Virus genome (UHGV): UHGV-0195847
DNA length: 39,909 bases
Direction: 5' to 3' (one strand)
Origin: a virus
Within the stretch, counting starts at the first letter, position 1, and the number at the start of each line of letters is the position of its first letter. The translations under genes were made by a program, and so were the position numbers. The notes beneath the pieces are model-generated. The model saw only the letters and a program-made list of their open reading frames with translations. It did no database searches and was not told the DNA's origin. Positions 2,003-23,575 of the stretch are shown here, piece by piece.

Positions 2003-3478
2003 TTAACGAGTCAAATAGTTATATTCCACACAACCTTCGCCTGGATTATATCGGAATTCCACAACCGGATGCCCGAAATCCAGTTGTTCGTAATCATTTG
2101 TGAAAAACAAGTCTTTGTCTGTATAAAGTTTTGCATAGTACTGCATATATTCTTCAGAATTATTAATACAATGGTATTCAGGCATATAAATGTTAGTCCC
2201 ATCATCGAAATTTTGTATCGCACCAGAGCTCATCAGATTGTTGAAGGCAATGTATCGTTCTGTCTGTACCTTTAGCATATTTCCAATTCCCGAGTTAAAC
2301 GCTCCGGTAGCCAACGAAATGGCAAATACGCAACTGCATAAGAACATTCGGATTGTTCTTTTATAATGAAAAAGAGAACATATCCAAACTGCACATAATA
2401 CACCTGCCAATACCATGAAAAACCAGGAGTAAAAGCTTGTTAAATATCCGAAGGTCTTTTCATTACACCAATTGATATATTTGCTGGTAACACACAATGG
2501 TAAATTGGGTAAGAACATACCCATAATACTAATGATTATAATCTTTAAATATTTACCTTTCCAAATAATTCTTTTGATAAAATACCCAAAAAGAAAAGTG
2601 GTTAATCCTGCGATTAAATATATATCATAGGAAGCTTGTAGGAAGAAAGTGATGAGTTCACCATTGTATATGGTATAGAGCATCGGTATCAAGGGAAATG
2701 CTGCGATAGAATACATAAAAAGACACCAAATGCTTCCTACAGGGTCGCCAAAGAAAAAAGAAGCACCATCATAAGTGATAGGATATATTTTCCTCCAAGC
2801 AAAATAGACAAATAAAAATACTAGAACCACACTGATGTGATAGGACATAGAGAGTAATGCTCTCTTCATATTTTTTTCATAAAAAAGGCTTATTATCACA
2901 AACAGTAAAATGTATGCAACAGCACTTTCATAAATTATTATACTGAACATATAGAATATGCTGCTCCATAATAACTTTTTCTTACATTGAGGTTTTTGTA
3001 GATATTGCAAATAAAAATAAATAGAGCATAGAATTAATCCAATAATAATCTGGTGCGAAAAAACATATGCAAGAAAGAGGCTGTGCCAATTAGATATAAC
3101 AGCTAATCCCCAAAAAAGTGTTATGACAGTCTTTGCAATGTCTTTATCGATGAAATCACTAACAAGTCGATACAATACATATACATCAAACAGTATGGTA
3201 CCATAAGAAAACAATTTATAAATCCACAGCTGGTCTGCCATCATAGGAATACCTAACATCAGGGTACTCATGAACTGTGTAATTCTTCCCGACTTTGTAA
3301 GATGGACCGCCCAACGAAACAAATCACCATGACGAACAATTGTATAGGTTAAAATATCATCATCTACAGCAAAATAGACAGGATAGATTTTGATGAGAAA
3401 AAGCGTCATCAGGCCCCCTATTAAAAACCATTCCAAAAATGTGGTCTTTTTAATATCAATGTTTTTATTGCTGTTCAA
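2003..3478 (-). CDS. Polytopic membrane protein, GT-C-fold glycosyltransferase-like (moron)
   Basis: 491 aa with at least 10 hydrophobic helices. Acidic DDD motif in first predicted loop (YFAVDDDILTY), as in PMT/ArnT-type GT-C enzymes. AT-rich (~30% GC). TTG start preceded by AGGAGG. Confidence 0.55.
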   Translation of the reverse strand: MNSNKNIDIKKTTFLEWFLIGGLMTLFLIKIYPVYFAVDDDILTYTIVRHGDLFRWAVHLTKSGRITQFMSTLMLGIPMMADQLWIYKLFSYGTILFDVYVLYRLVSDFIDKDIAKTVITLFWGLAVISNWHSLFLAYVFSHQIIIGLILCSIYFYLQYLQKPQCKKKLLWSSIFYMFSIIIYESAVAYILLFVIISLFYEKNMKRALLSMSYHISVVLVFLFVYFAWRKIYPITYDGASFFFGDPVGSIWCLFMYSIAAFPLIPMLYTIYNGELITFFLQASYDIYLIAGLTTFLFGYFIKRIIWKGKYLKIIIISIMGMFLPNLPLCVTSKYINWCNEKTFGYLTSFYSWFFMVLAGVLCAVWICSLFHYKRTIRMFLCSCVFAISLATGAFNSGIGNMLKVQTERYIAFNNLMSSGAIQNFDDGTNIYMPEYHCINNSEEYMQYYAKLYTDKDLFFTNDYEQLDFGHPVVEFRYNPGEGCVEYNYLTR

Positions 3479-3953
3479 CTTTAACCTCCTAATAACTCTG
3501 TCAAAATAGTATATGCATTTATTTCTTGACGCCTGTTAGTTAGTTTACCACATTCTTGATTGGTTGGCTAGATATTACAAGGGTTCATAATTTTAGTAAC
3601 AGTTTTGGTCAATGTTTTTATTATCATTGAGTGGTACTGGATGAATCGGGCCCGCCTATTTGGTAGGCAGTGACTACAATTTGCCTACCCTGTACAAGTT
3701 TTGGTAAATGATAGTATAGGTTTGTGTGTGCCAATATGTGAAAGTATTTCTCTTTATTCCCTTTAAATAAAGGTTGTTTTATGGTACTATGTGCAAAAAT
3801 ATGTTAGTATGTTTTTATGTGTTAACAAACGGGGAATGTCGAAACCGTCGTGGAACTATCACGCAAAATCAAGGATTGACGGACTATCTGACATCTTTAT
3901 TGGTTGCCCTGCCTACCTCTTGCCTACGCTTTTTTGAGTGGTAGGCAAGGTTG
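3479..3953. other. attP-like non-coding region with integrase arm-type repeats
   Basis: GGTAGGCA at 3662-3669 and 3940-3947. TGCCTACC at 3682-3689 and 3910-3917. TGCCTAC at 3921-3927. Inverted pairs flank short spacers. Located between the moron and the integrase 3' end. Confidence 0.5.
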
Positions 3954-5159
3954 CTATGATATAGCATCTGCCAGGATTACAATGGCATCGTTCTGCATTT
4001 TTTCCGTGTTAAACACATAACGGTCCATGGTGGTCTTGATGTCCTTGTGGCCCAGACGCTCCATGACGGTCTTGGGCTGGGCGCCATTTTCCGCCAACAA
4101 CGTGCCGTGAGTATGACGTAGGCAATGACTGTGGAACAGAGGATTTCCCAATTCTTCATGAATGACCTTGGCACAGTACTTGAAAGAGTATGGCGTCAAC
4201 AGCTCGCCGTTTTCTTTGGCGCTTATTGGCATTATTTCCTTGCCAACAATTTTGACGTTGGAAGGAGCCTGAAAGATTAAGCCATCGTCCATTTGATACG
4301 TCTTTGTAAAGTACTGGCCGTACCGGAGCATGTTCTTTTTGCGGTTATGGATTTCTGTTTTCAGAACTTTTTCATATTCCGGGAGTATTTTTATAGTCCG
4401 GACAGAATCATATTTTGGCGGCCGGTAATACCACTTTCCGCCCTCATTGGCAAGCTGGTGCTGGATGGTTATGGTGTGGCGCTCGAAATCTACGTCATGC
4501 AGCAAGTCAATGCCGTAAGCCTCTCCCAGGCGCGTGCCACAATGGTATCCGGTCATGAGCGGTATGTAAAAATTACTGTCCGGCCCAAAACGCTCAATGA
4601 TGGCCGCAAAGTCCTCTTTGACACAGATATATTCTGTGTGTGCCTTGGCCTCATCAGACATAACTATCTTCGGTATTCTGGCATAATCACAGGGGTTGTA
4701 CTTGATGTATTTACAGGGATATACCGCATATCCCAGGGCACCAGACAGGCAGGATAAGGTATTTTTAACCATGCTCCTGGAATAGCCTTGACGCTTCATT
4801 CCGTCAATCCATTTTTGGATAACATCTGTCTCCAATGATGCCAGCCGGTATTTTCCGAATGCCGGTTTTAGATGCACACGGATTTTCTTTTCATAATCCT
4901 TTTGTGTATTGTAGCTGAGATTGGTTTTGACATAATTATCATACCAATAATCCAGATAATCAGATACGCTGATGTCCGAAGGGGTAAACCTGCGGCCAGC
5001 AGAGTCATATTCCGCCTTAGCTTGGGTGCCGGCAGTGATGGCCTCGGCCTTGGTACGGTATCCTCCCTGACTGATTGGGTTGCGCTTACCGTTGATTTTA
5101 GCCCCTTCAAAGGACCATTCCCAAGTGGAGCCGCGTTTCCTTGTGCGTAGTTGTCCCAT
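3954..5159 (-). CDS. int: Tyrosine integrase (phage integrase family with N-terminal arm-binding domain)
   Basis: 401 aa. C-terminal HCLRHTHGT...LGH..TT.DRY catalytic signature (R, HxxR, Y). N-terminal WEWSFEG...GGYRTKAEA arm-type DNA-binding domain. RBS AAGGAGGAA. Confidence 0.9.
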   Translation of the reverse strand: MGQLRTRKRGSTWEWSFEGAKINGKRNPISQGGYRTKAEAITAGTQAKAEYDSAGRRFTPSDISVSDYLDYWYDNYVKTNLSYNTQKDYEKKIRVHLKPAFGKYRLASLETDVIQKWIDGMKRQGYSRSMVKNTLSCLSGALGYAVYPCKYIKYNPCDYARIPKIVMSDEAKAHTEYICVKEDFAAIIERFGPDSNFYIPLMTGYHCGTRLGEAYGIDLLHDVDFERHTITIQHQLANEGGKWYYRPPKYDSVRTIKILPEYEKVLKTEIHNRKKNMLRYGQYFTKTYQMDDGLIFQAPSNVKIVGKEIMPISAKENGELLTPYSFKYCAKVIHEELGNPLFHSHCLRHTHGTLLAENGAQPKTVMERLGHKDIKTTMDRYVFNTEKMQNDAIVILADAIS

Positions 5160-13583: not shown

Positions 13584-15359
13584 ATGAATAAAACCATATT
13601 TGACAACATGATACGGACAGAGCCGGGTGAGGACCGCCTGCTTTTCATCAACGATGATGTGACACTGTGCGGACAGATTATCGCCGCCGGCCGGAAGGCG
13701 GTATTCATTGGAAGGGACCAGATGACGGAGCAGTACTTTACCCTGGAAAGTTTCCGGAAGTACATGGAGGAGAAGGCCAACACGGGAACCTGTATGTGTG
13801 ATTATACATACGTGCTGGCCTGTTACCGCAAAGGGGTAAACGAAGAAATCAGGGAACTTCTCCGGCGCGTAGGCGGCATCACATACCAAGAGGATGGCTG
13901 GAAGCTGTTCCGCGGAAAGGAATATCTGTCCCTTCCGGAAAACCTGGAGGAGCTGAAGGAGTGCCTGCAGCGGTATGCGCAGCGCCTCACCGGCCCGGGC
14001 AGTGAGGTTCAGTTTAAACGCCAGTTCCATCAGCTGGACAAATACGGCAACCCCAGGCGCGTCATTGACAAGGCCGTGGTGGATTACCTGATGCAGGAAA
14101 TGGACATGTTCGCCATGAACGGGGTTCTGTACCTTTATGAGTGCGGGGTGTTCCGCGAGGACCGGGACGGGACGCGCATCAAGAATCGGATACAGGAACT
14201 GCTGTACACGGAATTTATTAAGTCAACTGCGCTGAATCAGATATTCAACCTGCTGCTGATTCAGGAGGACATCCAGCGGGAGTTTACGGACCTGAACCGG
14301 TACCCGGTTACATGGATTAATTTTAAAAACGGCATGTATGATGTGGTGGAGCATAAGCTCCGGCCGCACAGGAAGGAATATTTCTCCATCAATCAGATCC
14401 CTCATGAGATTTATCCGGACCTGGATTTGGAAAACGAATGGCGGTTTACAGACCGGTTCCTGACAGAGATATCTGCGGGGCCGGATGACCGCCGGATGCT
14501 GCTGCAGTATCTTGGCTACTGCATGACCCGGGATACCAGGCAGCAGAAGTTTATGATCATCAAGGGTACCGGCGGTACGGGTAAGAGCCGTATTATCAAC
14601 CTGTTTGAGACAATCATAGGAGGGGACAACTGTTCCAACATCCCGCTGCAGGACCTCAACAAAAGGTTCTACGCGACCAATCTGTACTGCCAGCTTTTAA
14701 ATTCATGCGCGGATATTCCTTCCAGCGCCATGGACAGTATTGATGTGATTAAGAAGGCCACAGGCGAGGACGCGCTGATGTATGAAAAAAAGGGACGTGA
14801 CCCGGTGACCTTCCGCAGCTACGCAAAGCTGCTTTTCTCCGCGAACAAGATACCGCTCAATCTGGACGAGAAGTCAGATGCGTATTACCGGCGCCTTCTC
14901 ATCTTTGAGATGAACAAGAAGCCGCAGAAGAAAGACTATGGACTGGACGAGAAGCTGGCAGCGGAGGTGGGCTGTACGATTCTGGCAGCGGTGAACGCCC
15001 TGGGAGAGATGTACACAAGTGAGAATGGTGAACTGAAGGCATCAAGGAACAGTGAACGGCTGGTGAATGAATTATACAAGGAGGCGGACAGCGGGAAGGC
15101 ATTCCTGGAGGACTGCCTTCAGAAGACGCCGGGGGGAAGGATTAAGCGGAGCGACCTGTTTGAGGAATACAGGCGGTACTGCGAGGAAAATGAGCGCGTC
15201 ATCTATAAGAAGAATATATTCTTTTCAAATCTGCGGGAAAAGGGGTTTGAGGAAGTGAAAGTCAAAGGGATCATGTATTTTGTTGGGATTGAACTGAAAA
15301 GCGATTTTATCCAGGTGGATGAAAATGAACAGCAGACGCTCCCATTCCCTCAAATGTAG
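13584..15359 (+). CDS. Phage/plasmid P4-family primase C-terminal domain / D5-like NTPase
   Basis: Walker A KGTGGTGKS, Walker B LLIFEMNK. 591 aa. Replication-module context. Confidence 0.8.
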   Translation: MNKTIFDNMIRTEPGEDRLLFINDDVTLCGQIIAAGRKAVFIGRDQMTEQYFTLESFRKYMEEKANTGTCMCDYTYVLACYRKGVNEEIRELLRRVGGITYQEDGWKLFRGKEYLSLPENLEELKECLQRYAQRLTGPGSEVQFKRQFHQLDKYGNPRRVIDKAVVDYLMQEMDMFAMNGVLYLYECGVFREDRDGTRIKNRIQELLYTEFIKSTALNQIFNLLLIQEDIQREFTDLNRYPVTWINFKNGMYDVVEHKLRPHRKEYFSINQIPHEIYPDLDLENEWRFTDRFLTEISAGPDDRRMLLQYLGYCMTRDTRQQKFMIIKGTGGTGKSRIINLFETIIGGDNCSNIPLQDLNKRFYATNLYCQLLNSCADIPSSAMDSIDVIKKATGEDALMYEKKGRDPVTFRSYAKLLFSANKIPLNLDEKSDAYYRRLLIFEMNKKPQKKDYGLDEKLAAEVGCTILAAVNALGEMYTSENGELKASRNSERLVNELYKEADSGKAFLEDCLQKTPGGRIKRSDLFEEYRRYCEENERVIYKKNIFFSNLREKGFEEVKVKGIMYFVGIELKSDFIQVDENEQQTLPFPQM

Positions 15360-15647
15360 GAAGGGGGCAGCAGGGGGCAATTAGGGGGCAGTAAAGGGGG
15401 CAAAAACAGGAATGCTCTGTTAGCCTGCAAAGCCTTGTATTTACATACTTTTTTAAAGATAGGGGGCAAAAGGGGCAGTATATATTCTTTCGGTTTAAAA
15501 AATCAATAAATATATAATAAATATAGAATAACTTTTCTTTTGCCCCTTTTGCCCCCCCAATGCAGAAACTCCTTGTAAATACGTTGTTTTTGGGGGGGCA
15601 TTTTTAATTCCCGTTTTTGCCCCACATACCTTGAAAGGAGTGTTTTG
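15360..15647. repeat. Iteron array plus AT-rich core: putative phage replication origin
   Basis: GGGGGCA direct repeats at 15363, 15373, 15384, 15396, 15462 (spacing 10-12 bp). AT-rich 15481-15540. Inverted TGCCCC/TGCCCCCCC copies at 15541, 15550, 15618, and GGGGGGGCA at 15592. Confidence 0.6.
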
Positions 15648-16238
15648 ATGATTTTATCAGACCAGTTGAAAGAAGTCAAGCGTCTGGATCAGATACGGAT
15701 GAAAAACGAACAGATGGTGCCCAGAGAGGAGCTGCAGGGGAAGTACCGGGAGCCTTATGAAAAGCTTCTGAATCATCTGTCCAACCAGAATAAGAAAGCC
15801 GTTGCGTACTGCAGGCAGGTATTTGGCAGGGCTATTGAATGTTTGGAGCGGGGAATGGGAATGTACAACCCCGATGAACTGTATGAAATGATGAGGGAAT
15901 ACTACGAACCCGGCTCCGGTGATCCATTTGAAGCAGGGGTGTTGAAAGCAGTGTATGAGGCACTGGAGGACAGGGACCGGGAAGACGATGGAGGATACGC
16001 GGTAAGCCACGAAATAAGCAAAAGAGGAATGTGCGGATATTGCGGAAAGAAGGAAGCCACCCAGTTATGCGATATGCCGAAGCATACGATAGCTGTGGGG
16101 ATACGAAGAAGCTATGTAAAGACCTGTGACAACCCTATGTGTTCAGACTGCGCAACAAGGTTTAGGGGATTTGAGCTTTGCCCGGACTGTGTGAAGGAAC
16201 TGGAGGTAAGCCTGCGGCAGGAGGAAGAAAACCAATGA
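15648..16238 (+). CDS. Hypothetical protein with C-terminal Cys-rich zinc-ribbon region
   Basis: 196 aa. CGYCGKK...CDNPMCSDC...CPDC. RBS GAAAGGAG. Confidence 0.5.
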   Translation: MILSDQLKEVKRLDQIRMKNEQMVPREELQGKYREPYEKLLNHLSNQNKKAVAYCRQVFGRAIECLERGMGMYNPDELYEMMREYYEPGSGDPFEAGVLKAVYEALEDRDREDDGGYAVSHEISKRGMCGYCGKKEATQLCDMPKHTIAVGIRRSYVKTCDNPMCSDCATRFRGFELCPDCVKELEVSLRQEEENQ

Positions 16239-19754: not shown

Positions 19755-20013
19755 TTGTGGCCAATACGACGGCCGGTACAGAGCAGCGGAACTGATGGTA
19801 ATGCTGGGCATCCGGCACCGGCAGCAGATAGAGCATTACAGTGACGTGGGTATCCTGTACCAAAAGCGATATACCTTTGTCAGGGCGGAGGATGGGAACG
19901 CGCCAGAACTGGCCGATGAATGGGACAGGGTGACGCAAGTATTGAAGGGATGCGGGCACGATTTGGGCAGGATACCGATTGTGGTATCTAGGGATAAGCG
20001 GAAGAGGAGGTGA
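19720..20013 (+). CDS. Hypothetical protein (possibly one gene with 19545..19754 via frameshift)
   Basis: Overlaps previous ORF in another frame. Candidate GTG 19720 after AAGGGAG. Stop overlaps the ATG of the late activator (TGATG). Confidence 0.3.
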   Translation: MASRPVYYDLYDCGQYDGRYRAAELMVMLGIRHRQQIEHYSDVGILYQKRYTFVRAEDGNAPELADEWDRVTQVLKGCGHDLGRIPIVVSRDKRKRR

Positions 20014-20471
20014 TGCCGGTGGATAAGGAGGTGCTGATACAGTATTGCGAGATGAAAGAGGAGATAAAGGACATAAGGCGACGGATTCAGAAGCTGGACA
20101 GGTTCCTGGAGGAGCCGCACCAGGTATCAGATACGGTGAAGGGTACAAGGCGGGATGGGACGATAGGAAGCATTAAGGTCACGGGATACCCCGTGCCGGA
20201 GCATTACCGGAAGCAGCGGCTGAGGGAGCGGTACAGGCAGCTTCTGGCGCGTAAGGAGGCGGAACTGCTGGAGCTGACCTGCCAGGCGGAGGAATATATA
20301 CAGGGCATACCAAAGAGCGAGGTGCGGACCATGTTCCGTCTGTATTACATAGATGGCCTGCCTTGGTGGAAGGTGGCACAGGCCATGAACCGGATGTTTC
20401 CTAAGAGGCGGGTTAAGTTTACGGAGGACAGCTGTTGGCAGCGAAATAAAAGATTTTTTGAGGAAAATTGA
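20013..20471 (+). CDS. Putative late-gene transcriptional activator, sigma-70 region-4-like (DUF1492/ArpU/RinA-like)
   Basis: C-terminus GIPKSEVRTMFRLYYIDGLPWWKVAQAMN resembles a sigma region-4 HTH. Position upstream of the packaging genes. Confidence 0.5.
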   Translation: MPVDKEVLIQYCEMKEEIKDIRRRIQKLDRFLEEPHQVSDTVKGTRRDGTIGSIKVTGYPVPEHYRKQRLRERYRQLLARKEAELLELTCQAEEYIQGIPKSEVRTMFRLYYIDGLPWWKVAQAMNRMFPKRRVKFTEDSCWQRNKRFFEEN

Positions 20472-20732
20472 AAATGTCGGTTCATGTTGGGATGAAAAGT
20501 GCTAATATGCTATCATGCGGAAGCCAGAGGGCGGAAGCACCCTCCCCATTTAAGCAACGGCCGCCAGGTATCACACCCTGGTGGCTGACTAACCGGTATT
20601 GTGTAATCTCTCATAAGACAGACCTGTACATTAACGGACAATGCCGCAGGGTACACAACCGGTGAGGTATCTGGTTTTATCCCCCATGACGTTTTCCAGA
20701 TACATAGACAGATTTTCTCCTTTGGATGAGTC

Positions 20733-20765
20733 CCTGCCAGTGCGGCGGGGGCTTTTCTTTTGTCA
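20733..20765 (+). terminator. Terminator-like hairpin upstream of moron
   Basis: CCCTGCC-AGTGC-GGCGGGG (one G.U) followed by GCTTTTCTTTTG. Confidence 0.45.
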
Positions 20766-20806
20766 GATTTTGGTGTATGATAAAAAGAACTAAGGAGGGA
20801 AACAAG

Positions 20807-21493
20807 GTGGATCAGGAAAATGATGTGAGGAGTGTTCTAATTGAAAAAAAATATGATGCGCGTAAATGGAAAAAAATTATGGACACTACACAAAGTAATT
20901 ATGCGAATATGATAAAACGTTTAGATAGGAGGAACAAGGTATCAAATTATGTATTAATTTACTATAGTATATTTTTAATTGCCATAACATTAACTGGGAA
21001 GTATTTTCCAAAATATTTCAGCACTATTTTAGGGGAATATTTTGGTATTTTACTTTCAATAATTATGCTGGCATATTCTCTTGTAAATAACAGTGCAAAT
21101 TATTCTGTTAGAATTTCAAAAATTGAAGAAGCATTAAATAAATTAAAGACAATAAAAAGAGAAGTTAATGATGAGAATATAGATACATATAAAGAAAAAT
21201 ATTATGCTATAACAGATACTACCGAGCGTCGGGAGGATGTTGATTTTTTTGTTACTGTAAAACATTTATGCAAAGAGTATAATATAAACGTGATAACAAA
21301 AAAATCTAAAGATAAAGATCATATAGGGCTTGATGAACAAGAAAAAGTCGTAAACGATTATGTTAGCGAAATTAATATTTACTTGGAAGAAAGTAAAATT
21401 ATTTTTGAATACCTTTGGTATGGGTTATTGTTTTTTACTCCAATGCTAATTTTTGCTTTATGTTTTATTGTAAAAATACGTGGAGGTGTATAA
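20807..21493 (+). CDS. AT-rich moron: 3-TM membrane protein with SLATT-like N-terminal 2TM topology (candidate defence/abortive-infection effector)
   Basis: 228 aa. GTG start after AAGGAGGG. Helices YVLIYYSIFLIAITLTG, ILGEYFGILLSIIMLAYSLV, and C-terminal YGLLFFTPMLIFALCFIV. ~27% GC versus ~50% flanks. TGTATGAT extended -10 at 20774-20781. Own terminator downstream. Confidence 0.55.
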   Translation: MDQENDVRSVLIEKKYDARKWKKIMDTTQSNYANMIKRLDRRNKVSNYVLIYYSIFLIAITLTGKYFPKYFSTILGEYFGILLSIIMLAYSLVNNSANYSVRISKIEEALNKLKTIKREVNDENIDTYKEKYYAITDTTERREDVDFFVTVKHLCKEYNINVITKKSKDKDHIGLDEQEKVVNDYVSEINIYLEESKIIFEYLWYGLLFFTPMLIFALCFIVKIRGGV

Positions 21494-21596
21494 AATTACT
21501 TCGGGGTGGAACGACTCTATTACTGAAATAAGCAAAAGAAAAAGACAGCCTATTTGGCTACCTCATCCCTGCAAAACTCATACAGCGTAATACCTA

Positions 21597-21630
21597 GGCA
21601 CCTGTCAATCCAACAGGTGCTATTTTATTG
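21597..21630 (+). terminator. Rho-independent terminator after moron, abutting terS RBS
   Basis: GCACCTGT-CAATCCA-ACAGGTGC 8-bp stem followed by TATTTTATT. Confidence 0.7.
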
Positions 21631-21650
21631 CATGAAAGTAGGGGAGTCAG

Positions 21651-22229
21651 ATGGCATTAACGCCAAAACAGAAGATATTTGCAGATGAATACCTAATTGA
21701 CCTTAATGCCACCAGGGCTTACAAGGTGGCGTATCCGAGCTGCAAAAAGGATGATACGGCAGCAGTCAACGGAAGCAGGATGCTAAGAAATGCTAAGGTT
21801 GCGGAATATATACAAGAGCGCATGAAAGAACGGGAGAAGCGTACTGAGATTACGCAGGACTGGGTATTGGAGGAACTGCGCAAGATTGCCAGCGTAAACG
21901 GAACCGATTTTGCACAGGTTGTGCGAGAGCCGGTCATCCGTAATAACTCTTATGTGGTGGATCCCGATACTGGCCAGGTGCGGACAAGGGATGTGGTCAG
22001 GATAATCCCGACAGCGGAACTGACAGAAGAAAAACGGGCGGCTATCTCCGCAATCAAGGAAACAAAGTTTGGAATAAATGTGGAAACCTATGACAGGTTA
22101 AGAGCCTTGGAGCTCCTGGGACGCCATCTGGGGATGTTTAAGGACAAGATGGAGCTGTCTGGTGGCCTGGATACCGAAAAGACCAAGCTGGATGACTTGC
22201 TCCAGCAGATGCGCGGTGGTGGCCAATGA
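21651..22229 (+). CDS. terS: Terminase small subunit (Terminase_2 family)
   Basis: LTPKQKIFADEYLIDLNATRAY... matches the conserved N-terminus of terminase small subunits. Precedes TerL. Confidence 0.85.
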   Translation: MALTPKQKIFADEYLIDLNATRAYKVAYPSCKKDDTAAVNGSRMLRNAKVAEYIQERMKEREKRTEITQDWVLEELRKIASVNGTDFAQVVREPVIRNNSYVVDPDTGQVRTRDVVRIIPTAELTEEKRAAISAIKETKFGINVETYDRLRALELLGRHLGMFKDKMELSGGLDTEKTKLDDLLQQMRGGGQ

Positions 22230-23575
22230 GTGCAGAGAGATTATTACTATCAGATAAGTACAAGGCGTTCCTGCATTGTGATGCGCCGGTGGAGTTCCTG
22301 GAGGGTACCACGGCAGCCGGAAAGACCACGGTAGGCCTGTTCAAGTTCATGCTCAAAGTGGCGGAGTCACCCAAAAAGCTTCACATCCTGGCAGCGGATG
22401 ACACCGGCGCCGCAGAGAAAAATATCATCCAGAAGGACCTGGGTATCCTGGATGACTTCGGCGTACTGGTGGAGTACAAAGGTAACGGCGGAGGTGGTTA
22501 TAACATGCCCCACATCCTCTTCCACACATCCGGCGGCGATAAGATAATCTTTGTTGTCGGCTATGGCAACAAGCGCAAGTGGAAGGATGCCTTGGGCGGC
22601 CAGTACGGATGCCTGTACATTGATGAGATTAACACGGCCGACATAGAGTTTGTGCGTGAGGCCGCCATGCGGAGTGATTACCTGATGGCCACGCTCAATC
22701 CGGATGACCCTGGCCTGGATGTCTACAAGGAGTATATCAACTGTTCCAGGCCGCTGCCGGAATGGGCGGATGAGACGCCAAAAGAGATAATGGACGAATT
22801 ACAGGAAGAACCAAAACCCGGTTGGGTACATTGGTTCTTTTCTTTTGTCCATAACCTGGGCCTGAGCAAGGAAAAACTGGAACAGATAATGACCAATACC
22901 CCGAAAGGGACGAAAATCTGGAAGAATAAGATTCAGGGACTGCGTGGTAAGGCAACCGGACTGATATTCTCCAACTTTGAGCGGTCTAAGCATGTCATCA
23001 CAGTCCAGCAGGCCAAGGCACTGAAATTCAAAAAGTTCACGGCGGCTTTGGACACATCCTACTCTTCCAAGTCCCCGGATACCATAGCCATGATATTCCA
23101 GGGAATCACGGAGGACAGGAAGCTTATCACCCTGGCCGAAAAAGTCTATAACAATTCCAAGCTTGACATCCCCCTGGCGCCCAGTGACACAGCAGTCAAG
23201 TTTGTGGCCTTCCTGGAACAGTGTCGGAAGGATTGGGGATTTGTCAAGGATGTGTACATAGACAATGCGGACCAGGCGACCATCACGGAGTTGCGCAAGT
23301 ACAAGCGGCTTAAAGGCTGCCTGCATAATTTTTATGATTCCTACAAACGGCCAGAGATTTTGGACCGTATCAACCTACAGCTGGGCTGGATACAGCAGGG
23401 ATGTTACCTGGTGGTGGATACCTGTGCGGAGCACCTGTCCGAGTTAGACCGGTACTCGTGGGATGACGAGAAGGATAAGCCAGAGGACAGGAACGACCAT
23501 ACCATTAATGCCAATCAGTATGCGTGGATACCATACCGGAACCTGATTGGATTTGAGGAGGCTGAGAAGAAATGA
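22226..23575 (+). CDS. terL: Terminase large subunit, PBSX/XtmB family
   Basis: Walker A GTTAAGKT. 449 aa. Nuclease-domain acidic residues. Followed by portal. Confidence 0.9.
   Translation: MSAERLLLSDKYKAFLHCDAPVEFLEGTTAAGKTTVGLFKFMLKVAESPKKLHILAADDTGAAEKNIIQKDLGILDDFGVLVEYKGNGGGGYNMPHILFHTSGGDKIIFVVGYGNKRKWKDALGGQYGCLYIDEINTADIEFVREAAMRSDYLMATLNPDDPGLDVYKEYINCSRPLPEWADETPKEIMDELQEEPKPGWVHWFFSFVHNLGLSKEKLEQIMTNTPKGTKIWKNKIQGLRGKATGLIFSNFERSKHVITVQQAKALKFKKFTAALDTSYSSKSPDTIAMIFQGITEDRKLITLAEKVYNNSKLDIPLAPSDTAVKFVAFLEQCRKDWGFVKDVYIDNADQATITELRKYKRLKGCLHNFYDSYKRPEILDRINLQLGWIQQGCYLVVDTCAEHLSELDRYSWDDEKDKPEDRNDHTINANQYAWIPYRNLIGFEEAEKK

Follow-up and report, generated by a model that had tools for sequence, protein, structure and literature searches.

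What is the role of the short gap that follows the gene of a presumed replication protein in the viral genome UHGV-0195847? The window analysed here is the full 39.9-kb stretch of DNA (39,909 nucleotides), and the gap, 288 bp at positions 15360-15647, is exactly the non-coding interval between two + strand genes, the first of them labelled 'primase'. An initial annotation made from the letters of the sequence took the gap for an iteron-type origin. Our computational analysis bears this out in three respects: the upstream protein resembles the initiator PriRep5; the gap has the make-up that defines the origins of Staphylococcus aureus pathogenicity islands (SaPIs) and phage-inducible chromosomal islands (PICIs); and its geometry is conserved in relatives. 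We consider it likely that the upstream protein uses 15360-15647 as the origin of the phage, and, judged by its sequence, the gap is very probably a lytic (theta-type) origin of SaPI/PICI type, the kind that works with a self-loading helicase.

Repeats and AT-rich core of the gap

The gap and the genes that bound it comprise the following features, given as coordinates, strand and identity.

13584-15359, + strand: initiator gene, encoding a 591-aa P4/D5-family superfamily 3 (SF3) helicase labelled 'primase'; stop codon TAG at 15357-15359
15117-15299, + strand: predicted winged-helix coding region, residues ~512-572 (S1-H2-H3-wing)
15363-15402, + strand: left outer array, four direct (A)GGGGGCA iterons starting at 15363, 15373, 15384 and 15396
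15403-15461, no strand: left spacer, 59 bp, carrying CCTTGTATTTACATACTTTTT at 15433-15453
15462-15477, + strand: left inner iteron pair GGGGGCAAAAGGGGCA, cores 9 bp apart, facing the AT core
15478-15540, no strand: AT-rich core, 63 bp, 85.7% AT, the presumed DNA-unwinding element
15541-15558, - strand: right inner iteron pair, inverted, TGCCCCTTTTGCCCC(CCC), cores 9 bp apart, with a C7 tract at its end
15559-15592, no strand: right spacer, 34 bp, carrying CCTTGTAAATACGTTGTTTTT at 15571-15591
15593-15600, + strand: right '+' iteron G7CA (GGGGGGGCA spans 15593-15601)
15607-15623, - strand: right outer '-' iteron TGCCCC (15618-15623), within a 17-nt inverted-repeat arm, ATTCCCGTTTTTGCCCC
15634-16238, + strand: downstream gene, 196 aa, function unassigned; ribosome-binding site AAAGGAG at 15634-15640, ATG at 15648

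Ten GGGGCA cores flank the 63-bp AT core, six on the left and four on the right. The outermost left iteron begins only 4 nt past the helicase stop codon, at 15363, and the array that it opens has spacings of 10, 11 and 12 bp (Tandem Repeats Finder period, 11). At least five GGGGGCA direct repeats with 10-12-bp phasing had been noted in the initial annotation; four are indeed so phased, while the fifth, at 15462, lies 66 bp beyond the array and belongs to the inner pair, its partner being a GGGGCA 9 bp downstream. The cores of this left pair start at 15463 and 15472 on the + strand and those of the right pair at 15541 and 15550 on the - strand, the latter pair consisting of TGCCCC (15541-15546) and TGCCCCCCC (15550-15558); GGGGGCAAAAGGGGCA at 15462-15477 and the stretch 15541-15556 are inverted repeats of each other, perfect over 16 nt. 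Further right, the '+' core begins 45 bp after the last inverted inner core and converges with the '-' iteron 23 bp away, start to start. The 17-nt arm in which that '-' iteron lies, 15607-15623, pairs with 15397-15413 (94% inverted repeat), and all inverted repeats of the gap share a dyad centre at ~15509.5. The inverted TGCCCC copies and the G7/C7 tracts noted across the AT core are present, at 15541-15623. Between the inner pairs, the positions 15479-15538 are 86.7% AT and rank first among all 60-bp segments of the window, so that the annotated 60-bp core of >85% AT is its AT-richest; it includes an AT-rich 11-mer tandem, AATAAATATAG, of 2.5 copies at 15505-15531.

The window as a whole is not enriched in the iteron: counting both strands, GGGGGCA occurs 10 times against 9.9 expected by chance. 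Seven of these ten copies are nevertheless clustered in 15363-15600, and 10 of the window's 26 GGGGCA cores fall in 15364-15623. Seven copies per 300 bp make this the strongest 7-mer cluster of the window, compared with a maximum of 3-5 copies of any 7-mer per 300 bp in 30 Markov-1 randomisations. Iteron clustering and AT core together are far beyond chance. There is no second iteron cluster in the window, whose ends the prophage may extend past; the three remaining GGGGGCA copies are isolated singletons.

The two spacer elements, CCTTGTATTTACATACTTTTT at 15433-15453 and CCTTGTAAATACGTTGTTTTT at 15571-15591, form a direct, unmirrored 21-nt repeat, 76% identical. No Rfam family reached its gathering score in the region, and the CyaR and miRNA matches that did appear were set aside as chance products of the palindromic AT-rich stretch. 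Two - strand open reading frames (ORFs), of 51 aa (15225-15380) and 58 aa (15503-15679), were rejected as genes, the latter because the one-base C/G-tract indels seen in relatives of at least 95% identity would break its frame.

The upstream helicase and its relatives

The 591-aa protein consists of an N-terminal domain (residues 1-135), D5_N, a DUF5906 ATPase and a predicted C-terminal winged helix. Its Pfam matches are DUF5906, D5_N and Pox_D5, and it scores 146.9 bits with NCBIfam TIGR01613 ('phage/plasmid primase, P4 family'), for which the cut-off is 108.7. The sole sequence match in the PDB (phmmer) is 7OLA (E 1.5e-7, residues 183-549), which is PriRep5 of SaPI5 (PMC9371898); identity between the two proteins is ~18%. 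The same entry heads the Foldseek matches (E 4.9e-14, TMt 0.64) of an AlphaFold model made with 34 homologues as input (mean pLDDT 78), followed by African swine fever virus (ASFV) PrimPol, monkeypox virus E5 and vaccinia D5. Modelled alone, the C-terminal 122 residues adopt the order H1-S1-H2-H3-S2-S3 with a core pLDDT of 76-83, and find their best PDB fold match in the RFX DNA-binding domain, 1DP7 (TMt 0.71, root mean square deviation 2.5 A), with RFX5 and the C-terminal domain of ASFV PrimPol next; the full protein also has a weak Pfam RFX_DNA_binding match. On the strength of these models the RFX-like winged helix is the presumed iteron reader. Residues 1-160 (13584-14063) are modelled as a confident alpha/beta fold (pLDDT 80-92).

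Relatives of the helicase, retrieved by protein search, comprised 11 viral contigs, 80 genome loci and four loci of intermediate identity. Many carry repeats beyond the helicase gene, made of the following iterons.

AGGGGGCA: L001-L004 and L012, 95-99% protein identity to the window
GTGGGGCA: P0002, 86% protein identity
TGGGGCA: P0004, 82% protein identity
GGGCAAAAA: P0005, 77% protein identity
(A/G)GGTGC: P0007, 60% protein identity
GGGGAAT: L015, 54% protein identity
GGGGCAAAA: L014, 53% protein identity
GTGGCAG: L017, 47% protein identity
GTGACAG / GTGTCAG: L008, 47% protein identity
ATGACAG: L005, L020, L021, L031 and L047, 41-46% protein identity
AACTGTAAAA, CTGTTAA and GTGCAAA: L009, L011 and L069-L071, more distant

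That the iteron sequence changes with the helicase lineage is indirect evidence of initiator specificity. Geometry was measured in 11 lineages of 41-99% protein identity. Wherever both copies of an inner pair were found, their spacing is exactly 9 bp; the left inner pair has both copies in 10 of the 11 lineages, L008 having one copy only. The distance from inner '+' to inner '-' is 66-72 bp in most lineages (exceptions: 59, 75 and 83 bp), the AT core is 62-66 bp long in eight, and its AT content is 78-90% in all except L005 (58%). In seven (the window, L092, L094, L096, L098, L017 and L008) a '+' copy follows 42-45 bp past the inverted pair, with a '-' copy 22-24 bp beyond it; L005 and L031 have a longer distance to the '+' copy, 56 bp in L005, and 20 bp from there to the '-' copy, and the '+' copy is absent from L015, where the right side has inverted copies only. 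Outer arrays of relatives have periods of 10-12 bp or 21-22 bp; L015 matches the 10/11/12 spacing of the window despite its different iteron. The origins of L017 and L008 are fully symmetric, with a left '-' copy. Conservation of the repeats in relatives, which the initial annotation had made a touchstone of its proposal, therefore applies to geometry, kept across lineages, and not to the iteron sequence itself, which changes.

Position is also kept. In 41 of 83 scannable loci (~7.7 kb each) no other 300-bp segment reaches the 7-mer count of the one that starts at the helicase stop, though three of these 41 are weak (3-4 copies). An alignment of the gap with nine relatives of 77-100% protein identity gave invariant columns at 58% of iteron-core and 65% of AT-core positions, against 28% in the spacers (Fisher p vs spacers 7e-5 and 1e-6, respectively). 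Conserved blocks coincide with both inner pairs, the AAATATATAA-AAATATA stretch at the centre and the two copies on the right; the left inner pair GGGGGCAAAAGGGGCA is invariant in all nine.

With which gene do the repeats travel? In L003 the downstream gene has been replaced and the iterons retained, the breakpoint falling right after G7CA; the origin is thus tied to the helicase module rather than the downstream gene. This breakpoint marks the right edge of the helicase-origin module, and the downstream 196-aa gene is the right boundary, outside it. The breakpoint maps to ~5020-5066 of L003 (window ~15602-15647), where the last '-' iteron reads TACCCCC. In the viral collection, the exact inner-core sequence was found only on four contigs, each with a close helicase. 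Metagenomes were searched with a degenerate palindromic-core pattern (GGGCAAAARGGGCA, 55-75 nt, TGCCCYTTTTGCCC), which returned 14 loci. In eight, a homologue of the window helicase (35-100% identity over the aligned part) ends adjoining the element, and in one more, L116, a distant D5_N/PriCT_2/DUF5906 gene ends 33 bp from it. The others are mostly short contigs or have the element at a contig end; that of L112 is mid-contig, directly after an ORF of unassigned identity.

Several observations on the relatives stand apart from these results. At 4640-4870 of L013, from an uncultured Clostridium metagenome-assembled genome (MAG) and a 77% relative, only the right half survives, namely the inverted pair, the + and - copies and some of the AT core. 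Its helicase gene is truncated (product P0008, 432 aa); this looks like a decaying prophage in which a single deletion took both the 3' end of the gene and the origin's left half. Non-gut metagenomes hold palindromic GGGCAAAA(A/G)GGGCA ... TGCCC(C/T)TTTTGCCC elements with flanking GGGCA-type arrays, as follows.

L103, 90-190 (TARA ocean contig)
L104, 272-367
L113, 354-449
L109, 630-731
L112, 420-503
L116, 183-281

GTTGGGGGCAAA arrays lie on both sides of the element in L104 and L113. By tblastn, the L103, L104, L113, L109 and L112 contigs, most of them short, had no homologue of the window helicase.

The winged helices of L017 and L008 are nearly identical, with wings that differ only in KDRT vs RDKK, and their iterons differ by one base, GTGGCAG vs GTGACAG/GTGTCAG; the two are a possible natural minimal pair for wing-base recognition. 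Across relatives, wing and H3 have an entropy of 1.8-2.0 bits vs 0.93 for the ATPase, and the N-terminal domain is equally variable. The spacers of relatives with other iterons have repeats of their own: CAGTATTTATGCGGGTTT occurs twice in L017 and in L008, an inverted copy is found in L005, and the repeats of L015 are CCCTTGTATTTCC and CCCTTGATTTTGC. A universal spacer motif was rejected: enrichment of exact motifs (GGAAACC, GTATTTA etc.) over 42 dereplicated origins was weak, the best, GTATTTA, being present in 7/42 vs 1/42 in the control.

Origin function weighed against other roles

The SaPI origin is defined by six to twelve penta- or hexanucleotide iterons placed directly downstream of the rep ORF, with an AT-rich region roughly at their centre and at least two iterons per side in opposite directions, which the C-terminal winged helix of Rep reads; Rep loads itself, and binding and melting proceed without ATP (PMC9371898). 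PICIs of Gram-negative bacteria have the same layout, and their pri-rep-ori segment replicates autonomously (PMC6092414). Every sequence-level element of this definition is found in the gap and the helicase upstream. As in SaPIbov1, SaPI1 and SaPI5, there is a homologous SF3 helicase with a C-terminal winged helix (here predicted); the putative origin lies directly 3' of the initiator ORF, an adjacency repeated in the window's relatives; its iterons, ten cores here against six to twelve, form two sets round an AT-rich centre, with at least two opposed iterons per side; and DnaA boxes are absent. It is only the origin type that is shared. The carrier here is a complete siphophage with structural genes rather than a ~15-kb satellite: a PICI is an element of ~10-15 kb without virion structural genes of its own, whereas the window has integrase, repressor, the small and large terminase subunits (TerS and TerL), portal, scaffold, head and tape measure. 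The host is a member of the Lachnospiraceae, not a staphylococcus; the iteron is GGGGCA or GGGGGCA; there are in addition a phased outer array and a convergent +/- pair at fixed distances; and where PriRep5 has an archaeo-eukaryotic primase (AEP) domain, the protein here has an unrecognisable N-terminal domain of ~135 aa.

Other members of the kind differ further. The putative origin of Enterococcus phage Abitsa, iterons around an AT-rich region with a PriRep5-like helicase (PMC13517437), was inferred in the same way and is likewise only putative; the phage is a lytic member of Efquatrovirus whose seven 10-bp repeats are unrelated in sequence and whose host is unrelated too. The alpha protein of P4, of the same family TIGR01613, binds origin repeats via its C-terminal winged helix, then unwinds and primes, having a Toprim-type primase domain (PMC4234260); no such domain is detectable here. 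ORF904 of pRN1 combines an SF3 helicase and C-terminal winged helix with a prim-pol domain, and its origin is just downstream of its own gene, a layout that the authors noted in some bacteriophages too (PMC4234260). That origin is a ~100-nt stem-loop without iterons, in contrast to the long-range inverted repeats round a 63-bp core seen here. A cruciform or stem-loop origin of the pRN1 sort was considered for the gap and rejected: as single-stranded DNA it folds only weakly better than shuffles (z = -2.15), and its main 'loop' would be 63 nt, which makes symmetric protein sites the better reading of the inverted repeats. Satellite phage P4 also depends on crr, another cluster of repeats that lies several kb away from its ori, whereas the window has no GGGGGCA cluster apart from the one in the gap.

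Short initiator sites beside an AT-rich unwinding element are common to iteron-plasmid, lambda-type, SV40 and papillomavirus origins. The plasmid and lambda initiators are not helicases, they rely on DnaA and DnaB-type loading, and their origins are usually within or upstream of the rep gene; here the initiator is itself a helicase and the origin is downstream of its gene. The DnaA boxes of a DnaA-dependent iteron origin were not found either, 15360-15647 having no match to TTATCCACA with at most one mismatch. The SV40 and papillomavirus initiators are SF3 helicases that form two hexamers over short inverted repeats; these are eukaryotic systems with a different origin-binding fold.

By analogy with SaPI Rep we infer how the origin could fire, from binding and melting to double-hexamer loading, bidirectional replication and the source of primers. 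The C-terminal RFX-like winged helix would read the GGGGCA iterons, and the two convergent inner pairs across the 63-bp, 86% AT core would nucleate two oppositely oriented oligomers. The AT core, 15478-15540, would melt, and helicase rings would load themselves on the single strands in the manner of SaPI Rep/PriRep, without DnaA or a separate loader, after which forks would depart both ways. The outer four-copy array, on one helix face, and the right convergent +/- pair might raise occupancy or cooperativity of the initiator. Primers would come from the N-terminal domain or from the host primase. An elaboration of this scheme seems to us unlikely: the repeats CCTTGTA(T/A)(T/A)TAC of the fixed 42-45-bp spacers and the adjoining convergent pair, 22-24 bp apart, would be a docking site for a second factor, and the G5 iterons would form a G-quadruplex, one-base tract changes tuning firing. 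The second factor could be a host protein or the AAA_24, DUF669 or SNF2 protein of the phage, and would, if real, give direction or a regulatory input to an otherwise symmetric origin; the G-quadruplex, if real, would form on the displaced strand from the G5 iterons of this lineage.

Several points weigh against an origin of this kind. What the analysis shows for this element, its anatomy, the homology and predicted fold of the initiator and the comparative pattern, is computational, and tblastn found only relatives of at most 33% identity among phages, no cultured phage being closer than ~33% at the protein level. GC skew does not inflect at 15.5 kb: it follows the direction of transcription in a monotonic rise and is uninformative. 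The outer iteron sets of the window are not mirror images, since the left lacks the '-' copy of L017 and L008. About half of the more distant relatives (~40% identity) have no clear 7-mer cluster downstream; these may have more degenerate iterons or origins elsewhere. A residue-to-iteron code for the winged helix could not be derived, L111 using GGGGCA with a very different wing. As to the priming step, residues 1-160 have no match, to a primase catalytic domain or otherwise, in Pfam, NCBIfam or a PDB profile search. 'Primase' is thus a family label, not a demonstrated activity: the upstream gene keeps the name by its membership of the P4 family, TIGR01613, and lacks an identifiable catalytic domain to go with it. 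The replication module showed no other gene for a primase.

Could the repeats instead be operators, bound by a phage transcription factor that controls the downstream genes (middle or late control)? Short direct or inverted repeat arrays between co-oriented gene blocks can be operators, the gap does separate the replication genes from a block of unassigned genes, and origins and promoters often overlap. But the gap has no sigma-70-like promoter on the + strand and no terminator after the helicase gene, and the candidate late regulator, phrog_36, is encoded at 20010-20468, beside the packaging genes. The repeats stayed with the helicase when the downstream gene was swapped in L003, and their iteron sequence tracks helicase lineage while the downstream gene varies by lineage (it encodes a single-stranded DNA-binding protein, SSB, in L005, L008 and L017). 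A 63-bp, 86% AT core with inverted pairs at fixed distances is also atypical of operators, and we hold this explanation to be quite improbable.

That the G-runs themselves are functional, as a + strand G-quadruplex at 15363-15400 or as a phase-variable switch driven by slippage in the G7/C7 tracts, is less probable again. On neither strand does the window have a canonical G3+N1-7 x4 motif other than 15363-15400. The 86% relative, however, has already lost the motif, one of its loops being longer than 7 nt, and the same architecture is built elsewhere from iterons without G-runs (ATGACAG, CTGTTAA, AACTGTAAAA); we accordingly take the G features for by-products of the iteron sequence of this lineage. 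Tract lengths do vary among relatives of at least 95% identity (G5/G6 at 15462, C6/C7 at 15553, G6/G7 at 15593). The variation is of one base, however, in the flank of the conserved GGGGCA core, and the tracts, lying between genes, switch no reading frame and show no sign of acting as a switch. We attach equally little probability to some other repeat-built cis site: pac/cos packaging sites, partition centromeres and recombinase arm sites are likewise clusters of short repeats, sometimes with AT-rich segments, but TerS/TerL lie 6 kb off (21651-23575), genes for ParA or ParB were not seen, the integrase, at a distance of 10 kb, has a cluster of its own (GTAGGCA x5, 3661-3947), and none of these would explain strict adjacency to the helicase across many lineages.

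Significance and genome setting

Taking the gap as a probable origin, the kind is already known, from SaPI/PICI origins, P4 alpha and the pRN1-like origin downstream of its own SF3-helicase gene, and current understanding of how such origins work is unchanged. What is new is a member in a host group without cultured phage relatives. A layout described as unique to PICIs (PMC6092414) is widespread in complete Lachnospiraceae prophages, and the spacing rules are tightly conserved while iteron specificity has diversified, which takes matters modestly beyond the prior literature. The segment 13584-15647 offers a testable origin and initiator pair of ~2.1 kb for an Enterocloster-like Lachnospiraceae prophage, in an abundant gut group with few replicons and genetic tools. 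The iteron classes make a natural panel of probably orthogonal initiator/origin pairs, usable in the study of DNA reading by RFX-like winged helices.

The window is a complete temperate siphophage, and its host is of the Lachnospiraceae, Enterocloster-like, in which the phage is integrated as a prophage. The nearest genome match is a prophage in [Clostridium] clostridioforme AGR2157 (L012, 95% protein identity), others being in Lachnospiraceae genomes or MAGs; a blastn search of 50,697 phage records with the helicase gene and gap as query returned nothing. An early + strand block runs through Gam, AAA_24, RusA, an SNF2/ResIII helicase and a DUF669 SSB-like protein to the 591-aa protein, after which come genes of no assigned function and then the phrog_36 regulator. 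Among the structural genes are those for portal, scaffold, major head and tape-measure proteins; the window contains no tRNA gene. Features away from the gap that bear on the foregoing are these.

3954-5159, - strand: integrase, among the lysogeny genes, with an ImmA-like peptidase and an XRE-type repressor
20010-20468: phrog_36 candidate late-gene regulator, near the packaging genes, 4.5 kb downstream of the gap
21651-23575: TerS and TerL, 6 kb from the gap

The second-strongest 7-mer cluster of the window, five copies of GTAGGCA/TGCCTAC within 300 bp (3661-3947), lies just past the integrase gene on its 3' side; these copies may be arm-type sites of the integrase in the attachment region. 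A 491-aa ORF (2003-3478, - strand) left of the integrase lies in a stretch of 34% GC and has no Pfam or PHROG match. Between the phrog_36 regulator and the small terminase gene, 20726-21493 encodes a SLATT_5-domain protein (SMODS- and SLOG-associating 2TM effector); the gene sits in a low-GC island (36.5% GC at 21001-22000) and is a candidate moron or defence gene.

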